Origin: a virus
Taxonomy: Duplodnaviria; Heunggongvirae; Uroviricota; Caudoviricetes
DNA length: 64,000 bases
IMG/VR virus record: IMGVR_UViG_3300043399_001190
Reading direction: 5' to 3' (one strand)
The position numbers and the translations under genes were made by a program. Of the stretch, positions 53,712-64,000 are shown piece by piece. Position 1 is the stretch's first letter. Every line of letters starts with the position of its first letter. The notes under the pieces are model-generated. The model did not search any database. It saw only the letters and a list, made by a program, of their open reading frames with translations, and was not told the DNA's origin.

Positions 53712-54631
53712 AAATTGCAGTTTGCTCGGATGTTCATCTTGAATTTGGACCTATTAGCCTCGAAAACACCGAGAATGCTGATGTTCTTATCTTGTCCGGC
53801 GACATTTGTGTTGCAAGCGGACTAAAGGAGCGTGACACTTATAATGTCATGGGTGAAAATGATAAATCCAATCAATTTCATACGTTCTTTCAAGAATGCA
53901 GTTCTAGATTCCCTGCCGTCATTTACATCGCCGGGAATCATGAACATTATCATGGTGATTATGCTAAGTCTATTGGAATTATCCGTGATCGTCTTGGTTA
54001 TCTGGTTAATGTCCATGTTCTAGATAAAGAATCCGTTATTCTGAATGGTCATCTATTCATTGGTGGTACTCTTTGGACTGATATGAATAAAGAAGATCCT
54101 GTAACCCTGAATCGCATCAAAGATTACATGAATGACTATCGAATCATTGAAAATAGTAATGAACAGGTAAGTTTTAAAGTTTATAAAGAAAAACTAAAAC
54201 CGGTTGGCATGACTGATGAAGAGTGGTTGGCGCAGCCTTATGATAGCCGAGTTGTTATGAAATTTGAAACTCGTCCGGCAAAATTTTCTCCGGAAGAATC
54301 CATAAAAGATCATAAGGCTATGTTGGAATATATTAAGAACACAATTGATCTTAATCCGAATGTGCCTGTGGTTGTTGTCGGTCATCATTCACCGTCAAAG
54401 TTGTCCGTGAAACCGCGTTACAAAGGTGATGTGGTTGTGAATGGTGCATATAGCTCGGACTTGTCTGAGTTTATTTTGGATCATCCACAAATTAAATTGT
54501 GGACACATGGACATACACATGATGTATTCGATTATATGATTGGTACAACTCGTATCGTTTGTAATCCTCGTGGTTATATCGGTTATGAAGATCGTGCGGA
54601 AGATTTTAATTTAAAATTTTTGGAGATTTGA
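53708..54631 (+). CDS. Calcineurin-like metallophosphoesterase
   Basis: SDVHLE, SGDI, GNHE, GHH.P, HGHTH, NPRGY. Confidence 0.92.
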   Translation: MKIAVCSDVHLEFGPISLENTENADVLILSGDICVASGLKERDTYNVMGENDKSNQFHTFFQECSSRFPAVIYIAGNHEHYHGDYAKSIGIIRDRLGYLVNVHVLDKESVILNGHLFIGGTLWTDMNKEDPVTLNRIKDYMNDYRIIENSNEQVSFKVYKEKLKPVGMTDEEWLAQPYDSRVVMKFETRPAKFSPEESIKDHKAMLEYIKNTIDLNPNVPVVVVGHHSPSKLSVKPRYKGDVVVNGAYSSDLSEFILDHPQIKLWTHGHTHDVFDYMIGTTRIVCNPRGYIGYEDRAEDFNLKFLEI

Positions 54632-54633
54632 TT

Positions 54634-54915
54634 ATGCCTTTGTTTGAGATTGACGTTTTGGTTCCTTTCCGCAACAAGTATATTATTGAAGCTGATACAC
54701 TGGAACATGCATATGATGAATTGGTTATGACTGAGCATAGTCGTGAATTTGATGAAGTTTCACAAAAGTTTTTGGGTGAACAAATCATTGAAGGTAGGGA
54801 AATTAAACGTGAGGATGTTCCGGTTTTAATTAACCGTCTTAAAAATATTAAAGAAGAATTATGTTGTCACTGGATGGAAGATAAACTAATCCATAAGGTG
54901 AATTACGATAAATAA
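54634..54915 (+). CDS. Hypothetical protein
   Basis: SD ggag 8 nt before the ATG. Confidence 0.55.
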   Translation: MPLFEIDVLVPFRNKYIIEADTLEHAYDELVMTEHSREFDEVSQKFLGEQIIEGREIKREDVPVLINRLKNIKEELCCHWMEDKLIHKVNYDK

Positions 54916-54920
54916 AATAT

Positions 54921-54996
54921 TCCGGCGTTCGTATAATGGATAATACAAGGGTCTTCTAAGCCTTGAATATGGGTTCGATTCCTGTACGCCGGACCA
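54921..54996 (+). tRNA. tRNA-Arg(TCT)
   Basis: Cloverleaf; loop CTTCTAA; encoded CCA. Confidence 0.92.
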
Positions 54997-55017
54997 AATT
55001 ATAACAAAAGGAAATAT

Positions 55018-55467
55018 ATGTCTGTAACATTAAAAAATCTTGAGAGTGCATTGGCTGGTGAATCTATGGCACATATCAAGTATCGTTATTTTGCTAAAAT
55101 TGCCAGAGAAGAAGGATTCGAAGAAGTTGCAAAACACTTTGAACATACTGCTGACCAAGAAATTAAACATGCTTGGGGTCACCTTGAGCTTTTGATTGGT
55201 AAACCTTCAACTAAAGAATGCCTTGAGAAAGCTATTGCAGGTGAAACTTATGAATATACAGAAATGTATCCTCAGTTTCTTTCAGCCGCCGTGACTGAAG
55301 GTAATCATAATGCAGCACAGATTGCAAAAGAGCAAATTCAGGAAAGCGAAGAACATGCTCTACAATTTATGGAAGTATTGAAACTGGCTGAAAAACGTTT
55401 TGCAGCACTTCAAAAAGTTGAGCAACGTCACGCAGAAGCATATAAAAAAGTATTGGAGAATCTATAA
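55018..55467 (+). CDS. Rubrerythrin (ferritin-like diiron)
   Basis: NL..A.AGES.A...Y..FA..A..EG, E..HA, GE.YE...MYP, E..H. Confidence 0.93.
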   Translation: MSVTLKNLESALAGESMAHIKYRYFAKIAREEGFEEVAKHFEHTADQEIKHAWGHLELLIGKPSTKECLEKAIAGETYEYTEMYPQFLSAAVTEGNHNAAQIAKEQIQESEEHALQFMEVLKLAEKRFAALQKVEQRHAEAYKKVLENL

Positions 55468-55598
55468 TGTCTGAAAAAGTTTACGTTTGTGTTGTTTGTG
55501 GTCATACACTATCCGAGGCTGATTGGTTAAGCTTACCAGACTCTGCAAATTGTCCGGAGTGTGGTGTTTCTAAAAACGACTACGTTTTGATGGAATGA
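55467..55598 (+). CDS. Rubredoxin, 43 aa (not in the ORF track)
   Basis: MSEKVYVCVVCGHTLSEADWLSLPDSANCPECGVSKNDYVLME: CxxCG...W..LP...CPxCG; coupled to both neighbours. Confidence 0.9.
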   Translation: MSEKVYVCVVCGHTLSEADWLSLPDSANCPECGVSKNDYVLME

Positions 55599-56113
55599 AA
55601 CAAAAGTTCATTGATGCATATATGAAAACGGCCGAGATATTCGCAGGACTATCTTCGGCTCGTAGGCTTCATGTTGGTGCGATTATCGTAAAAGATGACC
55701 GCATCATTTCTATTGGTTACAATGGAATGCCTTCTGGTTGGGATAACAATTGTGAAGATAAAGAATACATGAGTGATAATGCCGGCGCCTGGCTGTCACC
55801 TGAAGAAATTGAAGAACGTTGGCCATATAGTGAACAACAGTTACCAAAAACCGAAAATCTTCCATGGCGCCGTTACAAACTAACAACCAAACCAGAGGTG
55901 CTTCATGCTGAAACGAACGCAATCAGTAAACTCGCTAGAAGTAATGAAGCTGGCGATAATTCTACTATGTTTTGCACTCATGCTCCATGTCTTAATTGTG
56001 CAAAGCTAATTTATCAGTCTGGTATCAATTCTGTTTATTATCGTAATAGCTATCGAAGTGAAGATGGCATACAATTTTTGGAAAAAGCAGGTGTGACGGT
56101 AAAGAAGATTTAA
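55595..56113 (+). CDS. dCMP deaminase
   Basis: GYNGMP.G, HAETNAI, PCLNC. Confidence 0.93.
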   Translation: MKQKFIDAYMKTAEIFAGLSSARRLHVGAIIVKDDRIISIGYNGMPSGWDNNCEDKEYMSDNAGAWLSPEEIEERWPYSEQQLPKTENLPWRRYKLTTKPEVLHAETNAISKLARSNEAGDNSTMFCTHAPCLNCAKLIYQSGINSVYYRNSYRSEDGIQFLEKAGVTVKKI

Positions 56114-56177
56114 TTTCATAAGGTGAAACACCACGGAGTCTAAATACAGTATAATAGGTGATTAACTGGAGACTCGT

Positions 56178-56684
56178 ATGAAATTGAGAATAGTTAATTG
56201 TCCTGATAAAGATTTCAAACCCTTCGTCGAGAGGGCTGTTCATTTTTACGGACAAAGCCTGATGAGTAAACGCCTGCTCGACAATATAAACCTCAAGGTC
56301 AAATTCAATCCAAAATTGAATGTTTGTGGCTTTGCTTCCGTTGAAGATTATAACAACTCCGGAAAACCAAGAGAATTTTTAATTGAGATTCATTCTTGGA
56401 TTGGTGCAAAAGAAATTTTCAAAACACTTGCACATGAAATGGTGCATGTCAAACAGTTTGCATATATGGAGACCAACGATTCTTTGACACGTTGGAAAGG
56501 TGCTGTGGTAGATCCTGACAACTTGGATTACTACAAACACCCTTGGGAAATTGAAGCGTATGGAATGGACACCGGTCTGTTTACAAACTTTGCCATAAAA
56601 GAAAAGCTGTGGGAAATTTTTGAAGGCATTCAAGATCCAACAACACCAATAGAAAAGAAAAAATTGGGTTGGAAACAAAAATAA
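56178..56684 (+). CDS. Putative zinc metallopeptidase (HExxH)
   Basis: LAHEMVH..Q...PWEIEAY. Confidence 0.7.
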   Translation: MKLRIVNCPDKDFKPFVERAVHFYGQSLMSKRLLDNINLKVKFNPKLNVCGFASVEDYNNSGKPREFLIEIHSWIGAKEIFKTLAHEMVHVKQFAYMETNDSLTRWKGAVVDPDNLDYYKHPWEIEAYGMDTGLFTNFAIKEKLWEIFEGIQDPTTPIEKKKLGWKQK

Positions 56685-56706
56685 TTTTAAAAATTTGAAA
56701 AACCAC

Positions 56707-56735
56707 TTGACAAGTTGCCTATATACTGTTAGAAT
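56707..56735 (+). promoter_or_regulatory. sigma70-type promoter driving the leader peptide
   Basis: TTGACA-17-TAGAAT. Confidence 0.8.
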
Positions 56736-56758
56736 TTAATTTTTATTGGAGAAATTCT

Positions 56759-56866
56759 TTGTTACTCATATCGAAACCCGTTCTGTTAACATGCGAGTAT
56801 CGCACACCATTTATTGGTAGCGATAATCAGTCATGGGCGAACGGAAAAGGGGTATGTGGAACCTAA
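56759..56866 (+). CDS. 35-aa leader peptide of a candidate attenuator
   Basis: SD GGAGA, TTG start; MLLISKPVLLTCEYRTPFIGSDNQSWANGKGVCGT; its 3' end forms the antiterminator strand. Confidence 0.6.
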   Translation: MLLISKPVLLTCEYRTPFIGSDNQSWANGKGVCGT

Positions 56867-56897
56867 GAACATCTAAAAAGTAAATCAAAAGTTTCAC

Positions 56898-56929
56898 AAA
56901 CCCCAGACCTAAAAAATCTGGGGTTTTTT
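56898..56929 (+). terminator. Attenuator-type intrinsic terminator
   Basis: AAACCCCAGA-9nt-TCTGGGGTTT followed by TTT; 5' arm shared with the antiterminator helix. Confidence 0.85.
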
Positions 56930-56952
56930 GTTGTAATCTTACAACAGATGTG

Positions 56953-56980
56953 TTGACAAAACAGAAAAATCTGATACAAT
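56953..56980 (+). promoter_or_regulatory. sigma70 promoter of tRNA block 1
   Basis: TTGACA-16-TACAAT with an extended TG. Confidence 0.75.
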
Positions 56981-56990
56981 ACACATCTTC

Positions 56991-57038
56991 GCTTGAGAAA
57001 TCAGGCACAGTTCTTTAAAAAGTTAAGTGTAATTTGAT
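56991..57038 (+). promoter_or_regulatory. boxB-like GAAA hairpin plus boxA-like element, copy 1
   Basis: GCTTGA-GAAA-TCAGGC then GTTCTTTAAAAA; a 29-bp repeat is shared with 57956-57984. Confidence 0.6.
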
Positions 57039-57111
57039 CCCGGATGGTGTAGTGGCAGCACAGGAGACTTTGACTCTCTTAGTATAAGTTCGATTCTTAT
57101 TCCGGGTGCCA
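57038..57111 (+). tRNA. tRNA-Gln(TTG)
   Basis: Cloverleaf; loop CTTTGAC; CCA. Confidence 0.92.
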
Positions 57112-57300
57112 TAAGTATAACAATTGAGTGTAGATGTTGAGAAAGCAAGAGCCTCGAAATTCTTGTGAGTTGGGACTAATTATCCTAGTAGCAAACAAGT
57201 AACAACTATCACTACGTACCTCTAACCCTGCCGGCTTTATATCAAGGGTAAAATGCTGTCGAATGAGGGAGGCGACAGACTTAGTTGTTATTCTTATGGC
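57108..57300 (+). ncRNA. Structured RNA candidate closed by a 22-bp helix that starts at the tRNA-Gln CCA
   Basis: 57108-57129 pairs with 57279-57300 (one mismatch); internal hairpins CTGTCG/CGACAG and ACCCT/AGGGT. Confidence 0.55.
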
Positions 57301-57305
57301 TTATT

Positions 57306-57395
57306 GGAAGCGTGGCAGAGTCCGGTTTATTGCAACAGTCTTGAAAACTGTCGGCTCGAAAGGGTCCGTGAGTTCGAATCTCACCGCTTCCACCA
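57306..57395 (+). tRNA. tRNA-Ser(TGA)
   Basis: Long variable arm; loop CTTGAAA; CCA. Confidence 0.93.
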
Positions 57396-57400
57396 AACAC

Positions 57401-57492
57401 GGTGAAGTGCCCGAGAGGCCTAAGGGAGCGGTTTGCTAAACCGTCGATTCATGAAAATGGGTCCGTGGGTTCGAATCCCACCTTCACCACCA
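57401..57492 (+). tRNA. tRNA-Ser(GCT)
   Basis: Long variable arm; loop TTGCTAA; CCA. Confidence 0.93.
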
Positions 57493-57513
57493 ATTGTAAA
57501 TGAAAGGTAATAA

Positions 57514-57696
57514 ATGAAAACGAACAGTTCTTTCAAAATGTCTAAATCGACAAAACGTTTGCTTGCAATGCTTCCTTATGCAGATCAAGAACAACGTATT
57601 GCATTTAAACATGCTATGATTGGTGCACAACATTCTCCAAATGTTGCACCGAAAACAAGCAAAGATAAAATGCTAAAAGAAACAGAAGCAGATTAA
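57514..57696 (+). CDS. Small basic hypothetical protein
   Basis: SD gaaaggt; lies within the tRNA array. Confidence 0.55.
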   Translation: MKTNSSFKMSKSTKRLLAMLPYADQEQRIAFKHAMIGAQHSPNVAPKTSKDKMLKETEAD

Positions 57697-57698
57697 AA

Positions 57699-57788
57699 CC
57701 CGCCGTAGCTCAGGGAGAGCAGGGGGTCTTATAAACCCTTAATCTAGATAAGGTCCAGGATGTGGTTCGACTCCACACGGCGGGACCA
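57699..57788 (+). tRNA. tRNA-Ile(TAT) with atypical ~21-nt extra arm
   Basis: Acceptor CCCGCCG/CGGCGGG; loop CTTATAA; T-arm; CCA. Confidence 0.75.
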
Positions 57789-57794
57789 AATAAT

Positions 57795-57872
57795 GTGGGT
57801 GTGGCGGAGTGGTCCAACGCAACTGTCTGCAAAACAGTAAAATCGTCAGTTCAAATCTGACCACCCACTCCA
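57795..57872 (+). tRNA. tRNA-Cys(GCA)
   Basis: Loop CTGCAAA; U73; CCA. Confidence 0.92.
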
Positions 57873-57898
57873 AATGTTGTTTTTCTACAACACACTGG

Positions 57899-57926
57899 TT
57901 GACAAAAAAGCCAGTTCATGTAGAAT
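57899..57926 (+). promoter_or_regulatory. sigma70 promoter of tRNA block 2
   Basis: TTGACA-16-TAGAAT. Confidence 0.75.
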
Positions 57927-57936
57927 ACGTTTCATC

Positions 57937-57984
57937 GATTGAGAAATCAATCATTGTTCTTTAAAAAGTTAAGTGTAATTTGAT
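57937..57984 (+). promoter_or_regulatory. boxB-like GAAA hairpin plus boxA-like element, copy 2
   Basis: GATTGA-GAAA-TCAATC then TGTTCTTTAAAAA. Confidence 0.6.
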
Positions 57985-58060
57985 GCACCTATCGTCTAAC
58001 GGTTAGGACGCTGCCCTTTCAAGGCGGAAACGAGGAGTTCGATTCTCCCTAGGTGTGCCA
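57985..58060 (+). tRNA. tRNA-Glu(TTC)
   Basis: Loop CTTTCAA; CCA. Confidence 0.92.
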
Positions 58061-58184
58061 TTTCTTTTGTTGATTGTAAGCCACGGCAGAAACGTTCAAT
58101 GCTGAGTAACTATGTACATAATTGCGGTAATTCTAGACAAACCCGCATGAGCATAGCAAATAGTGCAGTCAACAAAACAAATGG
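58058..58184 (+). ncRNA. Structured RNA candidate closed by a 21-bp helix that starts at the tRNA-Glu CCA
   Basis: 58058-58078 pairs with 58164-58184 (one C-C mismatch); inner stems CTATG/CATAG and TGCGG/CCGCA. Confidence 0.55.
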
Positions 58185-58197
58185 TAAAAAATCAAAT

Positions 58198-58272
58198 GCG
58201 GGTGTAACTCAGAGGCAGAGTAACTGGCTTTTAACCAGTAAGTCGAGATTTCGAAATTCTCCACCCGTACCA
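58198..58272 (+). tRNA. tRNA-Lys(TTT)
   Basis: Loop CTTTTAA; CCA. Confidence 0.9.
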
Positions 58273-58278
58273 AATTTT

Positions 58279-58371
58279 GGAGGTCTTGATGCTATGGCGT
58301 GTGCATCCCCGGACTGTAAATCCGGTCCCTCGTGGTAAACAATCTTGGTTCGACTCCAAGGACCTCCACCA
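58279..58371 (+). tRNA. tRNA-Tyr(GTA)
   Basis: Loop CTGTAAA; long variable region; CCA. Confidence 0.88.
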
Positions 58372-58381
58372 CAAATACTAA

Positions 58382-58612
58382 GACAACACTTAGTAAGATG
58401 AGTAGATGAAAACCGACCCAGGGTGAGATCCTGGGCTTCAGCGGCGGGACTCTGATCCAAGACCTGACGAACGATAAGCAAAGTCGGTCCAGTAGGGGTA
58501 AGAAAAGTGTTGTCAGCGGAAAAAGCTGCCGAAGGACAGAAGTTACAAACATACACATTTGATATCTATAGAATCGAGTGGCAATTTGTTTCTAACGCCG
58601 TGTATTCCTTCA
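58382..58612 (+). ncRNA. Structured non-coding segment (about 230 nt)
   Basis: GACAACACTT/AAGTGTTGTC, CCCAGG/CCTGGG, ACCGAC/GTCGGT and GAAGGA/TCCTTC helices. Confidence 0.45.
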
Positions 58613-58620
58613 AGAATTTT

Positions 58621-58695
58621 GGTCTCAAAGTGTTCATGGACGCACATCAGCCTGTCACGCTGAAAGAAGGGGATCGTTACCCCTTGGGACCGCCA
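58621..58695 (+). tRNA. tRNA-Asp(GTC), atypical T-loop ATCGTTA
   Basis: Loop CTGTCAC; G73; CCA. Confidence 0.87.
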
Positions 58696-58702
58696 AGTTT
58701 AT

Positions 58703-58777
58703 TCCGGTGTAGCACAGAGGTAGTGCAGGTGACTGTTAATCACTTGGTCGTTGGTTCGATCCCAGCCACCGGAGCCA
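58703..58777 (+). tRNA. tRNA-Asn(GTT)
   Basis: Loop CTGTTAA; CCA. Confidence 0.92.
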
Positions 58778-58782
58778 CTTTT

Positions 58783-58837
58783 AGAATGCGTTCAGCAATT
58801 AAAAACTTTACTTGGAATAAAGCAAAAAAGCATTCTG
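58783..58837 (+). ncRNA. Family A RNA, copy 1 (displays a Pro UGG anticodon stem-loop)
   Basis: AGAATGC/GCATTCT stem, GTTCAGCAA, CTTTA-CTTGGAA-TAAAG. Confidence 0.65.
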
Positions 58838-58846
58838 TTTTATAAT

Positions 58847-58924
58847 GCCCCGGTGACGGAATTAGGTATACGTGTTGGTCTTAGAAACCAAATTTTAGGA
58901 GTTCGAGTCTCCTCTGGGGCACCA
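58847..58924 (+). tRNA. tRNA-Leu(TAG), short variable loop
   Basis: Loop CTTAGAA; CCA. Confidence 0.88.
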
Positions 58925-58925
58925 C

Positions 58926-58954
58926 TTGACTCGCTTTGATTGATGGCGTATAAT
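58926..58954 (+). promoter_or_regulatory. sigma70 promoter inside the tRNA array
   Basis: TTGACT-17-TATAAT. Confidence 0.7.
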
Positions 58955-58967
58955 AAGATAAATAATC

Positions 58968-59074
58968 AATCATTTTTATGAAGCACATTGTTAGTTAAAG
59001 GGGTTGGCGTCCTGAAGCAGAAGCGGCCAGCAGCCAATTGGGTTGATCTTCTGTCAGTGTGTTTCATAAAGATT
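58968..59074 (+). ncRNA. Family B long-stem RNA, copy 1
   Basis: TTTATGAAGCACATTG pairs with CAGTGTGTTTCATAAA. Confidence 0.5.
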
Positions 59075-59149
59075 GGGGGATTAGTGCTAATGGGAACACA
59101 CTTGTTTTGCAAGCAAGAATTAGGAGTTCGATTCTCCTATCCTCCACCA
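59075..59149 (+). tRNA. tRNA-Ala(TGC)
   Basis: Loop TTTGCAA; G3:U70 identity pair; CCA. Confidence 0.92.
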
Positions 59150-59159
59150 AAAGATTTTT

Positions 59160-59235
59160 GCCCCTGAAGCATTGCTGGCGATGCAACTGATTTGTAACCA
59201 GAAGATAGGCGGTTCGATTCCGTCCGGGGGCACCA
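59160..59235 (+). tRNA. tRNA-Thr(TGT)
   Basis: Loop TTTGTAA; weak anticodon stem; CCA. Confidence 0.85.
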
Positions 59236-59243
59236 AGTTTTAT

Positions 59244-59308
59244 GCGGTCGTTTTAAACAACAATAGGGTCCACCTGTTGTCTACGTGGGAATCGTAGTGA
59301 CCGCTCCA
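59244..59308 (+). ncRNA. D-armless tRNA-like RNA ending in CCA
   Basis: GCGGTCG/TGACCGC acceptor followed by T-CCA; ACAACA/TGTTGT arm; CTACG-TGGGAAT-CGTAG arm. Confidence 0.55.
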
Positions 59309-59315
59309 GTTTTAT

Positions 59316-59392
<77 letters not shown>

Positions 59393-59400
59393 GTTTTTAT

Positions 59401-59476
59401 TGCGGCGTAGGGAAATGGTATCCCACTGGCCTCATAAGCCAGAGGTAGTTGGTTCGATTCCAACCGTTCGCAACCA
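59401..59476 (+). tRNA. tRNA(CAT), Met or Ile2
   Basis: Loop CTCATAA; bulged acceptor stem; CCA. Confidence 0.8.
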
Positions 59477-59480
59477 ATAA

Positions 59481-59555
59481 GGTTGTATGACGTAGACGGA
59501 TGCGTACCGCCCTCATAAGGCTAGGAGGTTGGATCGTTACCAACTACAACCACCA
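59481..59555 (+). tRNA. tRNA(CAT), Met or Ile2; atypical T-loop ATCGTTA
   Basis: Loop CTCATAA; imperfect anticodon stem; CCA. Confidence 0.75.
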
Positions 59556-59561
59556 AAATAT

Positions 59562-59638
59562 CCGTCCTTAGCTCAATGGATCAGAGCATTTGGCTACGAA
59601 CCAAAAGGTTGGGGATTCGAATTCCTCAGGGCGGTCCA
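59562..59638 (+). tRNA. tRNA-Arg(ACG)
   Basis: Loop CTACGAA; CCA. Confidence 0.92.
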
Positions 59639-59643
59639 TATAT

Positions 59644-59717
59644 ACCCGGTTAGCTCAAAAGTAGAGCATACGACTGATAATCGTAAGACAGAGGAGCGTT
59701 ACCTCTACTGGGTACCA
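59644..59717 (+). tRNA. tRNA-Ile(GAT), atypical T-loop AGCGTTA
   Basis: Loop CTGATAA; CCA. Confidence 0.87.
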
Positions 59718-59722
59718 ATTTT

Positions 59723-59815
59723 AGAATCGTTTCAGCAAACCAATACTTGTCTTTGGATGACAATTTGCCTTCTAAGCAAACTAAGTAGGTTCGATTCCTA
59801 TAGTAAGCGATTCTG
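59723..59815 (+). ncRNA. Family A RNA, copy 2 (two anticodon stem-loops plus a T-arm)
   Basis: AGAATCG/CGATTCT; TTTCAGCAA; TTGTC-TTTGGAT-GACAA; TTTGC-CTTCTAA-GCAAA; GTAGG-TTCGATT-CCTAT. Confidence 0.68.
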
Positions 59816-59824
59816 TTGTACGTT

Positions 59825-59900
59825 ATCTCGGTAGCTCAACTGGCAGAGCAGCGGTCTCCAAAACCGAAGGTTGAGGGTTCGATTCCTTCCCGGGGTGCCA
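59825..59900 (+). tRNA. tRNA-Trp(CCA)
   Basis: Loop CTCCAAA; CCA. Confidence 0.9.
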
Positions 59901-59922
59901 ATTTTTTAAAAGGAGAAATAAC

Positions 59923-60129
59923 ATGAGTGATGGAGGAAAAGGTTCAAAGCCACGCCCATTCAGTGTTTCGAATGAAGAATATGCAAAACGTTGGGATGCT
60001 ATTTTCGGAAAAGATTTAGAAAAGGATCTTCGTGAAAAAGCATTGCAACAAATGGTCGATGAGAATCAGAGGCTAGGGCTTTATGATGATCTAGACCAAC
60101 AACTGAAGAGTAGTGGTAACTATAAATAA
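59923..60129 (+). CDS. Small hypothetical protein
   Basis: SD aaggag; GGKGS.PRP......Y...WD.IF motif typical of phage tRNA regions. Confidence 0.7.
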   Translation: MSDGGKGSKPRPFSVSNEEYAKRWDAIFGKDLEKDLREKALQQMVDENQRLGLYDDLDQQLKSSGNYK

Positions 60130-60145
60130 CAGAAAGTGAGTTAAT

Positions 60146-60616
60146 ATGTTCAACAAAAAAATTAACTTGGAAGAAGTTAAAGCCTATGTAGAAAGTTGCG
60201 GTCCAGAAACCAAAATTTATCTGGGCTGCGATTCAGAAAAAGTTAAAGTGAACGGCGTATGGTATGCTGACTATATCATTGCTATTGTTGTTCATATTGA
60301 CGGTAAGCATGGTTGTAAAATTTTTGGTGAAATTCAGCGTGAGCGAGATTTCGACCAACAGAAAAATAAACCTCGGATGCGGTTAATGACCGAGGTTTAT
60401 AAAGTTGCTGAAATGTATGTTGCACTTGCTGCAACTATACCGAACGATATTGAAGTACATCTTGACATTAACCCAGATATGATGCATAATTCAAGTATCG
60501 TTGTGAATGAAGCAATCGGTTATATCAAAGGTATGTGCAATGTTGTACCAATGGTAAAACCAAAAGCTTTTGCAGCCTCTTATGCGGCTGATAGATTGAA
60601 AAGTCTTGCAGCTTAA
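60146..60616 (+). CDS. RNase H-like YkuK (DUF458) family protein
   Basis: IYLGCDS, V.H..G..G, RL..E, EVHLDIN, KP.A.AAS..AD. Confidence 0.8.
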   Translation: MFNKKINLEEVKAYVESCGPETKIYLGCDSEKVKVNGVWYADYIIAIVVHIDGKHGCKIFGEIQRERDFDQQKNKPRMRLMTEVYKVAEMYVALAATIPNDIEVHLDINPDMMHNSSIVVNEAIGYIKGMCNVVPMVKPKAFAASYAADRLKSLAA

Positions 60617-60625
60617 ACAGACCCC

Positions 60626-60826
60626 GGTTTACACTTTTACGTTATATAAAGTGGGTTATTGCTAAACCATACTGGCACGGTGAGACTATTCATAACCGCA
60701 AGTCCGGCGATATCGGAGCCTTGAGATACATAGTCGGGTAGAAGTGTAACTAACCTATACGTAAATAACAACGGACAGGGTAAAGACTCCTGATTGGGGC
60801 GAAAATGGGAACGTGGCCAATCACTT
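60626..60826 (+). ncRNA. Structured non-coding segment (about 200 nt)
   Basis: TTACACTTTTAC/GTAGAAGTGTAA 12-bp helix and several GC-rich hairpins; no ORF in the track. Confidence 0.45.
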
Positions 60827-60827
60827 T

Positions 60828-60900
60828 GCGGGTATTCTCCTGGGAGAGGACTTAGCCTTCCAAGCTAAAGAAGCCGGTTCGAATCCGACTACCCGCTCCA
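60828..60900 (+). tRNA. tRNA-Gly(TCC)
   Basis: Loop CTTCCAA; U73; CCA. Confidence 0.9.
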
Positions 60901-60993
60901 TATAAAAACACATTACACGCCATGTAACTAGCGGTGGTAGCCTAGTGAAGGGTGCTTCTCCTACCGAGAAGTTTATAGTGTGTTTCTATATGG
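60898..60993 (+). ncRNA. Family B long-stem RNA, copy 2 (possible kissing loops)
   Basis: 18-bp helix starting at the Gly CCA; inner hairpins ACTAG/CTAGT and CTTCTC/GAGAAG with complementary loops GGTAG and CTACC. Confidence 0.55.
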
Positions 60994-60999
60994 TTTAAT

Positions 61000-61073
61000 G
61001 CGGGTATGATGTAAAGGTAGCCTGTGACCTTGCCAAGGTTAGTGTGAGAGTTCGATTCTCTCTACCCGCTCCA
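61000..61073 (+). tRNA. tRNA-Gly(GCC)
   Basis: Loop TTGCCAA; CCA. Confidence 0.92.
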
Positions 61074-61081
61074 AATTTTAT

Positions 61082-61157
61082 GGAGTTATTAGTGTAGTGG
61101 TCTGCACACCATGTTGTGACCGTGGTAGTATGAGTTCAATCCTCATATAACTCCCCA
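61082..61157 (+). tRNA. tRNA-His(GTG)
   Basis: G-1:C73; loop TTGTGAC; CCA. Confidence 0.92.
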
Positions 61158-61172
61158 ACGCAGAAAGAAAAT

Positions 61173-61412
61173 ATGAAATTTGTTCCTTTGAATAACAATG
61201 TTATTGTGAAACGTAAAGATCCTATTAAAACAACGTCCTCTGGTATTGTTCTACAGACTTCTCTAGAACCTGACCGTGGCATCGTTGTTGCAACTTCCAC
61301 AAACGATGTGGAAATTGGAAATGAATTGTTACTAAATTGGAACAAAGCATATAAGATTGACAATGAACACTACAAGATTCATGTCAGTGAAATCATTGCC
61401 ATCTTCGAATAA
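61173..61412 (+). CDS. GroES-like co-chaperonin
   Basis: PL.N.V.VK......TT.SGI.L......G.VVA...I.A pattern. Confidence 0.8.
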   Translation: MKFVPLNNNVIVKRKDPIKTTSSGIVLQTSLEPDRGIVVATSTNDVEIGNELLLNWNKAYKIDNEHYKIHVSEIIAIFE

Positions 61413-61418
61413 TTTTTT

Positions 61419-61494
61419 GCCTCGTTAACTCAGCGGTATGAGTAGCTCCCTTACAAGGAGAAGGTCGGCGGTTCGATCCCGTCACGAGGTACCA
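61419..61494 (+). tRNA. tRNA-Val(TAC)
   Basis: Loop CTTACAA; CCA. Confidence 0.92.
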
Positions 61495-61498
61495 ATTT

Positions 61499-61572
61499 GC
61501 TCTCATAGGTAAATGGCATACCGCATCCTTGGTAAGGATGTATTCCAAGTTCGATTCTTGGTGGGAGCACCA
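61499..61572 (+). tRNA. tRNA-Thr(GGT)
   Basis: Loop TTGGTAA; CCA. Confidence 0.92.
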
Positions 61573-61579
61573 AATTAAT

Positions 61580-61655
61580 GCAACTCTAGCTGATGTGGTC
61601 ATAGCGGCGGTCTGAAGAACCGTTGAAAGAGGTTCGATTCCTCTGGGTTGCACCA
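61580..61655 (+). tRNA. tRNA-Phe(GAA)
   Basis: Loop CTGAAGA; CCA. Confidence 0.92.
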
Positions 61656-61661
61656 AAAAGC

Positions 61662-61689
61662 TTGACAAAAAACAGGAATACGCTATAAT
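61662..61689 (+). promoter_or_regulatory. sigma70 promoter
   Basis: TTGACA-16-TATAAT directly before tRNA-Leu(TAA). Confidence 0.8.
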
Positions 61690-61699
61690 ACATGTATTC

Positions 61700-61782
61700 G
61701 CGGCTGTGGTGGAACGGTAGACACAGGAGACTTAAAATCTCCCGCCTTGAGCGTGTGGGTTCGAATCCCACCAGCCGCACCA
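61700..61782 (+). tRNA. tRNA-Leu(TAA)
   Basis: Loop CTTAAAA; variable arm; CCA. Confidence 0.93.
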
Positions 61783-61788
61783 AATATT

Positions 61789-61865
61789 GCCCTTGTAACC
61801 CAATAGGTAGAGGTGGCAGACTCAAAATCTGTTTAGTGTCGGTTCGAATCTGACCAAGGGTACCA
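61789..61865 (+). tRNA. tRNA-Leu(CAA), short variable loop
   Basis: Loop CTCAAAA; CCA. Confidence 0.88.
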
Positions 61866-61933
61866 TTAAATTTACGCAGTAGTGGCTATGCGTGTAACAA
61901 AACGAAACCTCAGGTACATGAGAGTTGTGCCCA

Positions 61934-62023
61934 GGAAGATGCAGTAAGATGGGTCTTACGCCCGCCTGGAAAGCGGGAGGTTGGTGTTAGCTGGCCGGGG
62001 TTCGATTCCTCCTTCTTCCACCA
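61934..62023 (+). tRNA. tRNA-Ser(GGA)
   Basis: Loop CTGGAAA; long variable arm; CCA. Confidence 0.85.
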
Positions 62024-62048
62024 ATGTGATAAAAATACAACAAGATGG

Positions 62049-62077
62049 TTGACAAATTACACTTAACTTGTTAGAAT
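62049..62077 (+). promoter_or_regulatory. sigma70 promoter for family A copies 3-4 and the Ro60-like operon
   Basis: TTGACA-17-TAGAAT with an extended TG. Confidence 0.8.
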
Positions 62078-62104
62078 CTCTATATTGAGATTGAGAAAGT
62101 TTTT

Positions 62105-62267
62105 AGGCAAGGTGCAGCAATAATCCAAACATGAAACAGTTGGTGTACTATGGTAGTTGTCTGGAGTACGGAGTCTTGACCGAGTACATTGAAGGACGCT
62201 ACTGAAGTAGTCCCAGCAAGGAGAGTTTCGATTTCTCTCTGTAATCAAAAAGTAGAAAACTTGCCTG
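62105..62267 (+). ncRNA. Family A RNA, copy 3 (tRNA-like insert with T-loop hairpin)
   Basis: AGGCAAG/CTTGCCT; GTGCAGCAA; GTACT/AGTAC arm; CTAC-TGAA-GTAG; TTCGATT-loop hairpin. Confidence 0.62.
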
Positions 62268-62275
62268 TTGTTTTT

Positions 62276-62336
62276 AGGTTAGGTTCAGCAACCCAATAGC
62301 ATACAACTTGTAATTGTAAACGCAAAAACTAACCTG
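62276..62336 (+). ncRNA. Family A RNA, copy 4 (displays a Thr UGU anticodon stem-loop)
   Basis: AGGTTAG/CTAACCT; GTTCAGCAA; TACAA-CTTGTAA-TTGTA. Confidence 0.68.
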
Positions 62337-62356
62337 TTATTTGAAAGGAGAATGTT

Positions 62357-63778
62357 ATGAACACTTTTGTAGATGCAGTTATTAATCAAGAAGCCCGTAC
62401 TGCCAATGGCATGAAGGCTCGCAAATCGACCGCAAATGCGGTCGTAGACTTGTTCTACAATGCAGGTGCAAGCCGTGGTAAAAATATTGTACCAGCTTTT
62501 GCTGCTGCTATGGCTGAAAACCGTGAATTGGCTCTCCGTGTGGCTGCATGGCTTCGTGATGCACGAGGCGGTGCTGGTGAGCGTCAATTGTTTCGTGACA
62601 TTCTCCTTCATCTGGAAAAAACCGACACTGAAGCCGCTACGGCTCTGTTGGCCAAAGTTCCAGAACTTGGTCGTTGGGATGATCTTCTGGTCTTTAAAAC
62701 TAAAGATATGAAGACCGTTGCATACTCCATGTTGGGTGATGCACTGCGAGCCAAAAATGGTTTGGCTGCAAAATGGACTCCTCGCCAAGGACCTATTGCG
62801 GCAGAAATTCGTGAATTCTTCGGAATGTCACCTAAATTCTACCGTAAATCTTTGGTCGAAATGACCAAAGTGGTTGAAACACAAATGTGTGCCAAAGATT
62901 GGGACAACATTAATTTCAGTCATGTACCTTCTGTGGCAACTGCCCGTTACAAAAAGGCCTTTAACCGTAATACTCCAAAGTATGCGGAATATGTGCAAGC
63001 ACTTGTAAAAGGTGACAATCCAGAAGTGAAAGTAAACGCATCTGTGGCATATCCATATGATGTGTTGAAAGGTCGCATTAACAACTACGGTGTAAAATTT
63101 GACAAGACCGAATTGGACTTGATTCAAAAGCAATGGGAAGCCTTGCCAAACTATGTTGGTGATGCTAACATTCTACCTCTAGTTGACGTTTCTGGTTCTA
63201 TGACCTGTCCCGCAGGTAAGAACACCAAGCTATCTTGCTTGGAAGTTGCGGTGTCTCTTGGTTTGTATCTTGCAGACAAGAACAAAGGAAAATTCAAGGA
63301 TACTTTCTTGACTTTCTCTAGCAAGCCAGAACTGTTGCACCTGGTTGGCAACATTAACCAAAAGATTGACCAAATGGTTAAATCTAAATGGGAAATGGGT
63401 ACCAATCTAAATGCAGCATTCAAGAAAATTCTTGATACTGCGGTGAAAGGTAATGTGCCTCAAGAAGAAATGCCAGCAATGGTATTGATTCTGTCTGATA
63501 TGCAATTCAACGCTTGTGTTGTGCATGATGACAGTGCAATCCAAATGATTGCACGTAAGTACCAAGAAGCAGGATACAAAATGCCAAAAGTAGTATTCTG
63601 GAACTTGAATGCTGCATATGGTAACGCACCTGTGAAGTTTGACAAGTCTGGTACTGCTCTGGTTTCTGGGTTCTCTCCAGCAGTAGTGAAGCCATTGCTG
63701 AGTGGAGACCTAGATAGCTTCACACCAGAGTCCGTGATGTTGAAGACCATCATGGATGACCGTTATAAAGTGCTTTAA
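62357..63778 (+). CDS. DUF2828-type TROVE/Ro60-like protein with C-terminal vWA domain
   Basis: RD.RGG.GER, G.W.DL, AAKW.PR, HVPS.A; MIDAS DVSGSM; ILSDMQF; VFWNL; VSGFS. Confidence 0.75.
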   Translation: MNTFVDAVINQEARTANGMKARKSTANAVVDLFYNAGASRGKNIVPAFAAAMAENRELALRVAAWLRDARGGAGERQLFRDILLHLEKTDTEAATALLAKVPELGRWDDLLVFKTKDMKTVAYSMLGDALRAKNGLAAKWTPRQGPIAAEIREFFGMSPKFYRKSLVEMTKVVETQMCAKDWDNINFSHVPSVATARYKKAFNRNTPKYAEYVQALVKGDNPEVKVNASVAYPYDVLKGRINNYGVKFDKTELDLIQKQWEALPNYVGDANILPLVDVSGSMTCPAGKNTKLSCLEVAVSLGLYLADKNKGKFKDTFLTFSSKPELLHLVGNINQKIDQMVKSKWEMGTNLNAAFKKILDTAVKGNVPQEEMPAMVLILSDMQFNACVVHDDSAIQMIARKYQEAGYKMPKVVFWNLNAAYGNAPVKFDKSGTALVSGFSPAVVKPLLSGDLDSFTPESVMLKTIMDDRYKVL

Positions 63779-63800
63779 CGGTTATGGAGACTCAATGGGT

Positions 63801-63889
63801 CTCCATTTTGAAACATATGGCACGACTAGAAGTGGATCCATCGTGGCTAGGCAGCCTTACTATGCATACCGTGTGTTTCAAAATGGAGA
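63801..63889 (+). ncRNA. Family B long-stem element, copy 3, covering the SD of the next gene
   Basis: CTCCATTTTGAAACATATGG pairs with CCGTGTGTTTCAAAATGGAG. Confidence 0.55.
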
Positions 63890-63895
63890 TATAAA

Positions 63896-64000
63896 ATGAA
63901 AATTACTGAAGATCAGTTTCGATTTGAGTGGTTTTCCGGTACAGGAAAAGGTGGGCAACATCGGAACAAACATCAAAATTGTTGTCGTTGTATACATGAA
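63896..64000 (+). CDS. GGQ peptide-release-factor homologue (ArfB/PrfH-like), truncated by the window end
   Basis: MKITEDQFRFEWFSGTGKGGQHRNKHQNCCRCIHE: G.GGQ..NK motif with no class I RF N-terminal domains. Confidence 0.8.
   Translation, partial: MKITEDQFRFEWFSGTGKGGQHRNKHQNCCRCIHE

Follow-up and report, generated by a model that had tools for sequence, protein, structure and literature searches.

A candidate leader-peptide attenuator of near-complete amino-acid content ahead of a phage tRNA array

Results

An attenuator-like element within a phage tRNA array

The window analysed here is a stretch of 64,000 nucleotides from the IMG/VR virus record IMGVR_UViG_3300043399_001190 (Caudoviricetes). 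It contains 27 tRNA genes detected by ARAGORN, all on the + strand and lying between 54922 and 62023, and, at 56707–56929, a short element that has the parts of a leader-peptide attenuator and is followed by the tRNA-Gln(UUG) gene. Two further tRNA(CAT) genes (59401–59476 and 59481–59555) were missed by ARAGORN at its default setting and were recovered by Rfam and by ARAGORN at a lower threshold. With both of them added the array tRNAs span all 20 amino acids, and the description of the array downstream of the leader as complete, made in a first-pass annotation of this DNA, is correct with that addition. The same annotation had proposed that the element senses tRNA depletion and calls up replacement tRNAs, and the promoter (P1), ribosome-binding site, start codon, 35-codon open reading frame (ORF), pairing, terminator and second promoter (P2) that it listed were all found where it had placed them. 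The features of the element itself are as follows.

56707–56735, + strand: promoter P1, with TTGACA at 56707–56712, a 17-nt spacer containing a TG, and TAGAAT at 56730–56735; the transcription start is expected at ∼56742
56748–56752, + strand: Shine–Dalgarno (SD) sequence GGAGA, 6 nt ahead of the TTG start
56759–56866, + strand: leader ORF, with TTG at 56759, 35 sense codons and TAA
56765–56787, + strand: candidate region 1 (anti-antiterminator strand), which pairs with region 2 in full-length minimum-energy folds
56798–56825, + strand: internal hairpin H1 (UAUCGC...GCGAUA), within the ORF, its stem pairs kept in homologues
56849–56862, + strand: region 2, GGGGUAUGUGGAAC, the predicted 5′ strand of the antiterminator, made up of the final five ORF codons
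56891–56904, + strand: region 3, GUUUCACAAACCCC, the predicted 3′ strand of the antiterminator, overlapping the 5′ arm of the terminator
56898–56907 and 56917–56926, + strand: arms of an intrinsic terminator with a 10-bp stem, a 9-nt loop and a U6 run to 56929 (−14.3 kcal/mol)

Homologues of the element

Homologous loci were gathered through the gene immediately upstream (56178–56684), whose product resembles a metallopeptidase, carries an HExxH motif and matches Pfam only below threshold. IMG/VR contains hundreds of relatives of this gene, and 80 loci were retrieved from among them. The leader element was found by nhmmer in 43 of the 80 loci, and a covariance model of its 3′ half added seven more, of which L045, L054 and L064 carry the leader upstream of a tRNA-Gln array. 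The remainder are divergent members, namely L041 and L073 together with L029 and L026, which have mini-leaders. Covariance-model matches in L006, L007 and L017 were rejected as leaders since they are ordinary terminators after the upstream gene, and a minus-strand match in L025 (4378–4515), which lies across the plus-strand element and its downstream tRNA, was taken as spurious. A scan of IMG/VR with a pattern made of region 3 and the terminator gave 34 more distinct members. Altogether there are at least 70 distinct versions of the element, from related freshwater phage contigs. Most of the homologue statistics given below rest on 42 distinct homologues and the amino-acid counts on 72 unique leaders. 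A blastn search of INPHARED for an annotated close relative matched only the tRNA-Gln of an Acinetobacter phage.

A tRNA array lies downstream of the element in every locus with enough sequence, usually with tRNA-Gln(UUG) as its first gene. The usual arrangement begins with P1, the leader ORF and the terminator, continues with a small hairpin, P2 and a boxB-like hairpin, and ends with a boxA-like GUUCUUUAAAAA and the first tRNA. The promoter at the P1 position is also kept in the homologues (TTGCCA or TTGACA, then TATAAT).

Alternative antiterminator and terminator helices

In the window, regions 2 and 3 are complementary at 13 of 14 positions, with one A·A mismatch and one G·U pair. The predicted duplex has an energy of −20.9 kcal/mol (z=−4.8 against shuffles), and 8 of the 10 bases in the 5′ arm of the terminator lie within region 3. 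The first-pass annotation had claimed that the two helices are mutually exclusive, with the pairing expected to recur in homologous loci, and the comparison bears this out. A region 2:region 3 duplex of −13 to −25 kcal/mol (median −18.9) is predicted for all 42 homologues, and in every one of them it takes in 7–15 nt of the terminator 5′ arm. The terminators themselves span −12.5 to −18.0 kcal/mol. They were seen, at −12.5 to −17.6 kcal/mol, in the 40 homologue extracts that reach far enough and were confirmed in the other two after extension, and they show many compensatory changes between their arms. Compensatory changes in the switch are evident on inspection. For example, UUAUGU/ACAUAA in L030 is replaced by UUGUGU/ACACAA in L039, and UUUUUGAA/UUCAAAAA in L020 by UAUGUGGAA/UUUCACAAA in the window.

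In a raw MAFFT alignment the counts for the antiterminator were weak and RNAalifold recovered only the base of H1, as indels displace the helices relative to one another. The sequences were therefore aligned with a covariance model. This alignment shows changes on both sides at 10 of the 11 antiterminator pairs, with 83% of cells paired. Five measures of the antiterminator were each reached by none of 500 shuffles, and slid controls scored far lower. Because this alignment is fitted to the structure, these values are read jointly with the duplexes predicted for the individual sequences. Taken together, the comparative data indicate that the antiterminator and the terminator are mutually exclusive and that this relationship is maintained in evolution.

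Among the homologues the stop codon is placed anywhere between 10 nt upstream and 18 nt downstream of the region 2 end, and masking of region 2 by a ribosome is marginal at the largest of these offsets. The consequences of ribosome position were modelled for seven representatives by hiding 28 nt around the A site and folding the nascent RNA as far as the 3′ arm of the terminator. The model predicts the antiterminator when the ribosome is at codons 1 to ∼26, or when there is no ribosome, and the terminator when ribosomes are on the last ∼8 codons. The prediction is less clean for far-downstream stops and for most positions in L048, where the arm was still scored as paired upstream.

A third helix, between regions 1 and 2 and enclosing H1, is suggested by the full-length minimum-energy folds of 19 of 20 representatives, and in these folds the terminator is formed. 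The sequence of H1 is highly conserved and its base pairs are kept, with G–C to A–U double changes in eight sequences. By analogy with known attenuators, H1 is possibly a hairpin that pauses RNA polymerase or one that synchronises ribosome and polymerase. The TATCAC...GTGATA palindrome was also considered as a lambda-like operator. This was rejected since the spacing between its arms ranges from 0 to ∼20 nt with complementarity kept, as befits an RNA hairpin and not a dimer site.

Translation of the leader ORF

An ORF of 30–43 codons, in frame with the internal hairpin, is open in all 42 homologues, compared with averages of 1.8 and 3.7 stops in the other two frames. The frame holds despite many indels, and changes in the length of H1 are always multiples of three. 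In 22 homologues there is no SD segment and the start codon lies 5–6 nt after the −10 box, which corresponds to a leaderless mRNA; in all 22 of them the start codon is ATG. The remaining homologues have a purine-rich SD segment inserted at this point and start with TTG, GTG or ATG. Since leaderless initiation needs AUG, the restriction of the leaderless versions to ATG is what translation predicts. Close pairs differ more often at third codon positions than at the other two (100, 102 and 158 at the first, second and third positions), and the ratio of non-synonymous to synonymous change (pN/pS) in the leader ORF is mostly 0.1–0.6. These patterns argue that the leader ORF is translated, and the open frames, ATG rule and third-position enrichment suggest that a translated leader is kept at homologous loci, as had been anticipated for the window. 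The two styles of initiation occur within one family of elements (L003, L004, L051, L043, L048 and others) and represent a natural switch of mode.

A Pfam search with three of the leader peptides, at E values up to 0.1, gave no match. The most conserved leader residues fall on paired segments of the RNA, namely the arms of H1, its lower stem and region 2. The residues in question are Tyr-Arg/His-Thr and Asp from the H1 arms and Gly-Phe/Val-Cys from region 2. By analogy with other attenuator leaders, for which this is typical, the peptide sequence as such need not matter. Sensing of Trp in particular, by a near-invariant UGG just 5′ of region 2, was considered and rejected. L025, L024, L077 and L079 lack the UGG, and its bases form the lower stem of H1 in most homologues.

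Codon and amino-acid content of the leaders

The 34 internal codons of the window leader comprise 30 distinct codons for 18 amino acids, a tally that agrees with the first-pass annotation. Real 34-codon segments of the genes of this phage contain on average 21.8 distinct codons (s.d. 2.8), and only 0.08% of them reach 30. The probability of 30 distinct codons is 0.001 under phage codon usage and is marginal, at 0.04, under uniform draws. The codons also end more often in G or C than those of the phage genes, as had been noted at first pass (GC content at third positions 0.41 versus 0.27). Among the leaders, codon diversity likewise exceeds expectation, though less strikingly than amino-acid diversity, with a mean z of +1.1 against uniform usage and +2.4 against phage usage.

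It is in amino acids, above all, that diversity is kept at the homologous loci. The whole 35-codon leader of the window contains 19 of the 20 amino acids, His being the one that is missing, and its nearest relative, L001, contains all 20. Among the 72 unique leaders (30–44 codons, median 35.5), 43 have the full set of 20 amino acids and another 18 have 19, and several of the complete leaders are just 31 or 32 codons long. The chance of finding all 20 was estimated from three null models (stop-free six-frame segments of this phage, uniform codons and phage codon usage) and is 0.0005–0.0016 for 35 codons and 0.00005–0.0005 for 31 codons. The 34 members from the pattern scan, which are an independent sample, include 24 complete leaders. 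Residue frequencies are flat, with Trp at 3.1% and Cys at 4.9%, and only Ser and Thr exceed 6.3%. When the nucleotides of the leader ORFs are shuffled, the number of amino acids encoded falls far below that observed (mean z=2.0).

The contribution of common ancestry was assessed with 23 subfamily representatives, which have a median identity of 32%. These contain a mean of 19.43 distinct residues compared with 17.82±0.22 after shuffling within alignment columns (a value reached in 0 of 5,000 shuffles), and 13 of them are complete compared with 1.7 expected from the column shuffles. His, Val, Ala and Gly are found at different positions in different subfamilies, yet they are retained. Given the excess over the column shuffles, shared descent does not explain completeness; each leader carries a complementary set of residues. 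On this sequence evidence the amino-acid completeness of the leader appears to be under selection.

Leader content and the downstream tRNA set

Complete arrays accompany complete leaders. The subgroup of L048 has short arrays of 10–13 tRNAs, none of them for Ala, and leaders with 16–18 residue types that are without Ala and Gly. An exact match between the amino acids of leader and array was considered for this reduced-array subgroup and found to be only partial.

Short relatives of the element, with 21–25 codons, stand before small tRNA blocks at L029:1336–1466, L026:6811–6940 and L027:7149–7292. The L029 mini-leader (1336–1401), which follows a small basic ORF as the second cistron, has 22 codons that specify mainly Leu, Asn, Thr and Pro, together with one Trp, and has the same region 2:region 3 and terminator design. 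The tRNAs that follow it are those for Leu, Trp, Pro, Thr and Asn. Its relative at L026:6811–6873 is without Trp, and it precedes tRNAs for Leu, Pro and Thr with no tRNA-Trp.

Transcription into the array and neighbouring features

Between the terminator and the body of the array the window contains the following features.

56930–56945, + strand: hairpin GUUGU...ACAAC between the terminator U-run and P2, conserved in relatives
56953–56980, + strand: promoter P2, a leader-independent entry into the array
56991–57021, + strand: boxB-like hairpin with a GAAA loop and then the boxA-like motif, downstream of P2
57038–57111, + strand: tRNA-Gln(UUG), identified by ARAGORN, the first gene of the array proposed to be gated

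The boxB/boxA-like segment is traversed both by transcripts from P2 and by read-through from P1, and it recurs at the corresponding position in relatives (L002–L079). P2 is present in most homologues and there is none in nine loci. In seven of these (L048, L049, L028, L080, L059, L025 and L076) the first tRNA begins 2–14 nt past the U-run, and in L067 and L024 just the boxA-like motif, kept as CGCUCUUUAAAAA and UGCUCUUUGACAA, respectively, separates the terminator from the first tRNA. At the nine loci the only visible route into the first tRNAs is thus to read through the terminator. The first-pass annotation had cautioned that P2 could provide basal expression of the array. The caveat holds for the window and does not extend to the nine relatives. 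Within the array of the window there are five more near-consensus sigma-70 promoters on the + strand, at 57899, 58926, 60462, 61662 and 62049, and the array is therefore not one single transcription unit.

The hairpin at 56930–56945 keeps its stem in relatives with differing sequence and loops of 6–8 nt. It could be a processing site, an element that protects an RNA 3′ end or a site for a regulator. A truncated tRNA-like element lies at 59744–59806 (Rfam, 29.1 bits). Protein genes embedded in or adjoining the array at 60146–60616, 61173–61412 and 62357–63778 encode, in this order, an RNase H-like protein (PF04308), a GroES-like ORF of 79 residues and a DUF2828/DUF7788 protein with a weak match to the Ro60-type vWA domain.

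Metatranscriptome runs were searched in small shares. Three of them have contigs over the spacer between tRNA-Gln and tRNA-Ser (57120–57200), with sequencing adapter attached immediately at 57129 and 57141, which points to a discrete and abundant small RNA derived from the long helix beginning at the tRNA-Gln CCA.

Discussion

We propose that the element acts as a ribosome-mediated leader-peptide attenuator, sampling the aminoacyl-tRNA pool as a whole and controlling access to a complete tRNA set, and from the comparative evidence we regard this as probable. According to this proposal P1 would yield a short RNA, and the 35-codon ORF would be translated before RNA polymerase has left the leader. 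Region 2, in the last codons of the ORF, could pair with region 3, and region 3 doubles as the terminator 5′ arm. A ribosome that arrives in good time at the last ∼8 codons or the stop would cover region 2, so that the terminator would form and the transcript would end at 56929. If the ribosome were delayed or stalled further upstream, regions 2 and 3 would pair, the terminator would be blocked, and the polymerase would read through P2 and boxA into tRNA-Gln and the rest of the array. With nearly every amino acid present once or twice, the transit time of the ribosome would report on the whole aminoacyl-tRNA pool and not on one amino acid, and the output of read-through would be a tRNA set for all 20 amino acids. 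We infer that the position of the ribosome decides termination, and likewise the direction of the response and its natural trigger, for which a mismatch of codons and tRNAs early in infection, loss of host tRNAs and tRNA-cleaving defences are candidates. The first-pass annotation had interpreted the element as an attenuator and named pairing, a translated leader and diversity at homologous loci as comparative tests, and the homologous sequences support it in each. A further proposition is that the leader is an amino-acid pangram kept by selection, with 20 residues in as few as 31 codons, through which any failing or slow aminoacyl-tRNA would switch on the complete replacement tRNA set. We consider the case for this to be evenly poised.

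Several observations weigh against the proposal. Some amino acids (often Gly, Val, Trp and Ala) occur only in or after region 2, and a stall at such residues should favour termination and would thus not be sensed. Moreover, each amino acid is present just once or twice per leader. The sensitivity of an attenuator scales with the fraction of regulatory codons (PMC1183508), and theory therefore predicts a low sensitivity to a mild shortage of any single amino acid. Such a device would be suited to sensing either the summed decoding speed over 20 species or the severe loss of one tRNA, and the latter is the input that new tRNAs could remedy. In the window, P2 and the five strong internal promoters provide leader-independent expression, so that the switch would add to a basal level and tune only part of the output, and would not be the sole gate. 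The region 1:region 2 duplex is weak (median −12.3 kcal/mol, z=−1.2 against shuffles), with 54–76% of cells paired in the homologues and limited covariation, and this clouds the predicted default state of the untranslated leader and the predicted effect of a stall in the middle of the ORF. The L048 subgroup has incomplete leaders whose residues correspond only in part to the tRNAs of its arrays. Conserved residues coincide with paired RNA, so that some constraint may lie at the level of the peptide. Finally, the lone RNA-library contig over the leader, which comes from a relative, spans 56741–56903 and stops within the 5′ arm of the terminator, and contigs cannot show transcript ends.

Of the other explanations, the one that survives best is a real attenuator that reads only whether translation is running at all or how tightly ribosomes keep up with polymerase, as would be affected by host shut-off or ribosome availability, with amino-acid completeness a side effect of RNA structure. 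We think this unlikely. It would accommodate the mapping of the conserved residues onto paired RNA segments, the low sensitivity for each amino acid that single codons imply (PMC1183508) and a codon diversity that is modestly above the uniform and nucleotide-shuffle nulls (mean z∼1.1–1.2). It does not readily account for the far smaller number of amino acids in nucleotide shuffles of the ORFs, for the compensation between positions revealed by the column shuffles, for the movement of His, Val, Ala and Gly between subfamilies in which they nevertheless stay, or for the recurrence of 31-codon leaders with all 20 amino acids.

Less likely still is a conventional gene for a small protein, flanked by a promoter and a terminator of its own and encoding a peptide with an independent function, in which the alternative helix merely tunes the efficiency of the terminator or the stability of the mRNA. 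The lack of a Pfam match argues against such a gene, as does a median peptide identity of 32% between subfamilies whose RNA pairings are kept by compensatory change, although pN/pS is below 1, there are recurrent motifs, the terminator is strong and, in the window, P2 can drive the tRNAs independently. It would also leave unexplained the apparent selection for completeness, the invariable site of the element before tRNA arrays and the loci where the terminator alone separates P1 from the first tRNA. A non-coding regulatory RNA with an incidental ORF, either a small RNA freed at the terminator or a protein- or tRNA-binding leader akin to a riboswitch, is very improbable: the P1 transcript folds well (−54.8 kcal/mol overall, z=−4.0 against shuffles), H1 is highly conserved in sequence and attenuator-derived RNAs can act in trans (PMC6614838), but any trans activity of the terminated RNA would supplement attenuation and not replace it, an Rfam scan of 54000–64000 at E values up to 1 gave tRNAs and chance matches only, with no T-box or cis-regulatory match over 56700–57040, and neither a frame that stays open in all homologues despite indels as the other frames are closed, nor the ATG rule of the leaderless variants, nor the enrichment of third-position substitutions is expected of an untranslated RNA.

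The proposed attenuator follows the established principle of leader-peptide attenuation (PMC1183508). Like trpL, hisL, pheL, thrL and leuL of the enterobacterial amino-acid operons, it has a short promoter-proximal ORF and an intrinsic terminator. As in leaders of the trpL/hisL type, the antiterminator would share one strand with the terminator and have its other strand at the 3′ end of the ORF, and there is a possible synchronising hairpin. However, leaders of this type have tandem runs of one regulatory codon, of which the phage element has none, with its 30 distinct codons in 34, and they gate biosynthetic enzymes, whereas the element is phage-encoded, would gate tRNAs, is leaderless in many versions and has a weak region 1:region 2 pairing. 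The cognate relation between leader and product takes another form here, in which a leader spanning all 20 amino acids stands before an array that supplies tRNAs for all 20. The leaders of ilvGMEDA and ilvBN sense several amino acids, and the element resembles them in that one leader with mixed codons would serve to sense more than one amino acid. These leaders respond to two or three related amino acids by means of repeated codons, in contrast to all 20 with almost no repetition. Both ilvGMEDA and ilvBN are named as attenuated operons (PMC1183508). T-box leaders also sense the tRNA pool and regulate translation-supply genes through a switch between terminator and antiterminator. A T-box, however, binds uncharged tRNA directly, is untranslated and has specifier and T-box motifs, none of which was detected here, where the evidence points to the ribosome as the reader. 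The boxA-like motif between the terminator and the first tRNA recalls the boxB–boxA antitermination leaders of rrn operons and would modify transcripts from P2 as well as those that read through. It is a separate downstream element and explains neither the ORF nor the alternative helices.

To our knowledge there is no earlier description of the selection of a peptide for compositional completeness. Full-text searching of the literature turned up neither attenuators preceding phage tRNA genes nor leaders that cover every amino acid. The logic of the attenuator is known; the tRNA target, a sensor for the whole code and selection for compositional completeness would be new.

Attenuators are textbook devices for sensing one or a few amino acids and controlling the biosynthesis of the same, and in the element described here that principle would be widened to the whole genetic code. 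With a length of less than 250 nt and sigma-70 consensus promoters, the element would also be a compact natural part for reporting translation capacity. Current ideas hold that phage tRNAs compensate for codon mismatch, for the decay of host tRNAs or for anticodon-nuclease defences. If the proposal is true, the supply of tRNAs would be under feedback control, which would answer host tRNA loss or tRNA-cleaving defences as well, and this would explain how tRNA-rich phages regulate their arrays.

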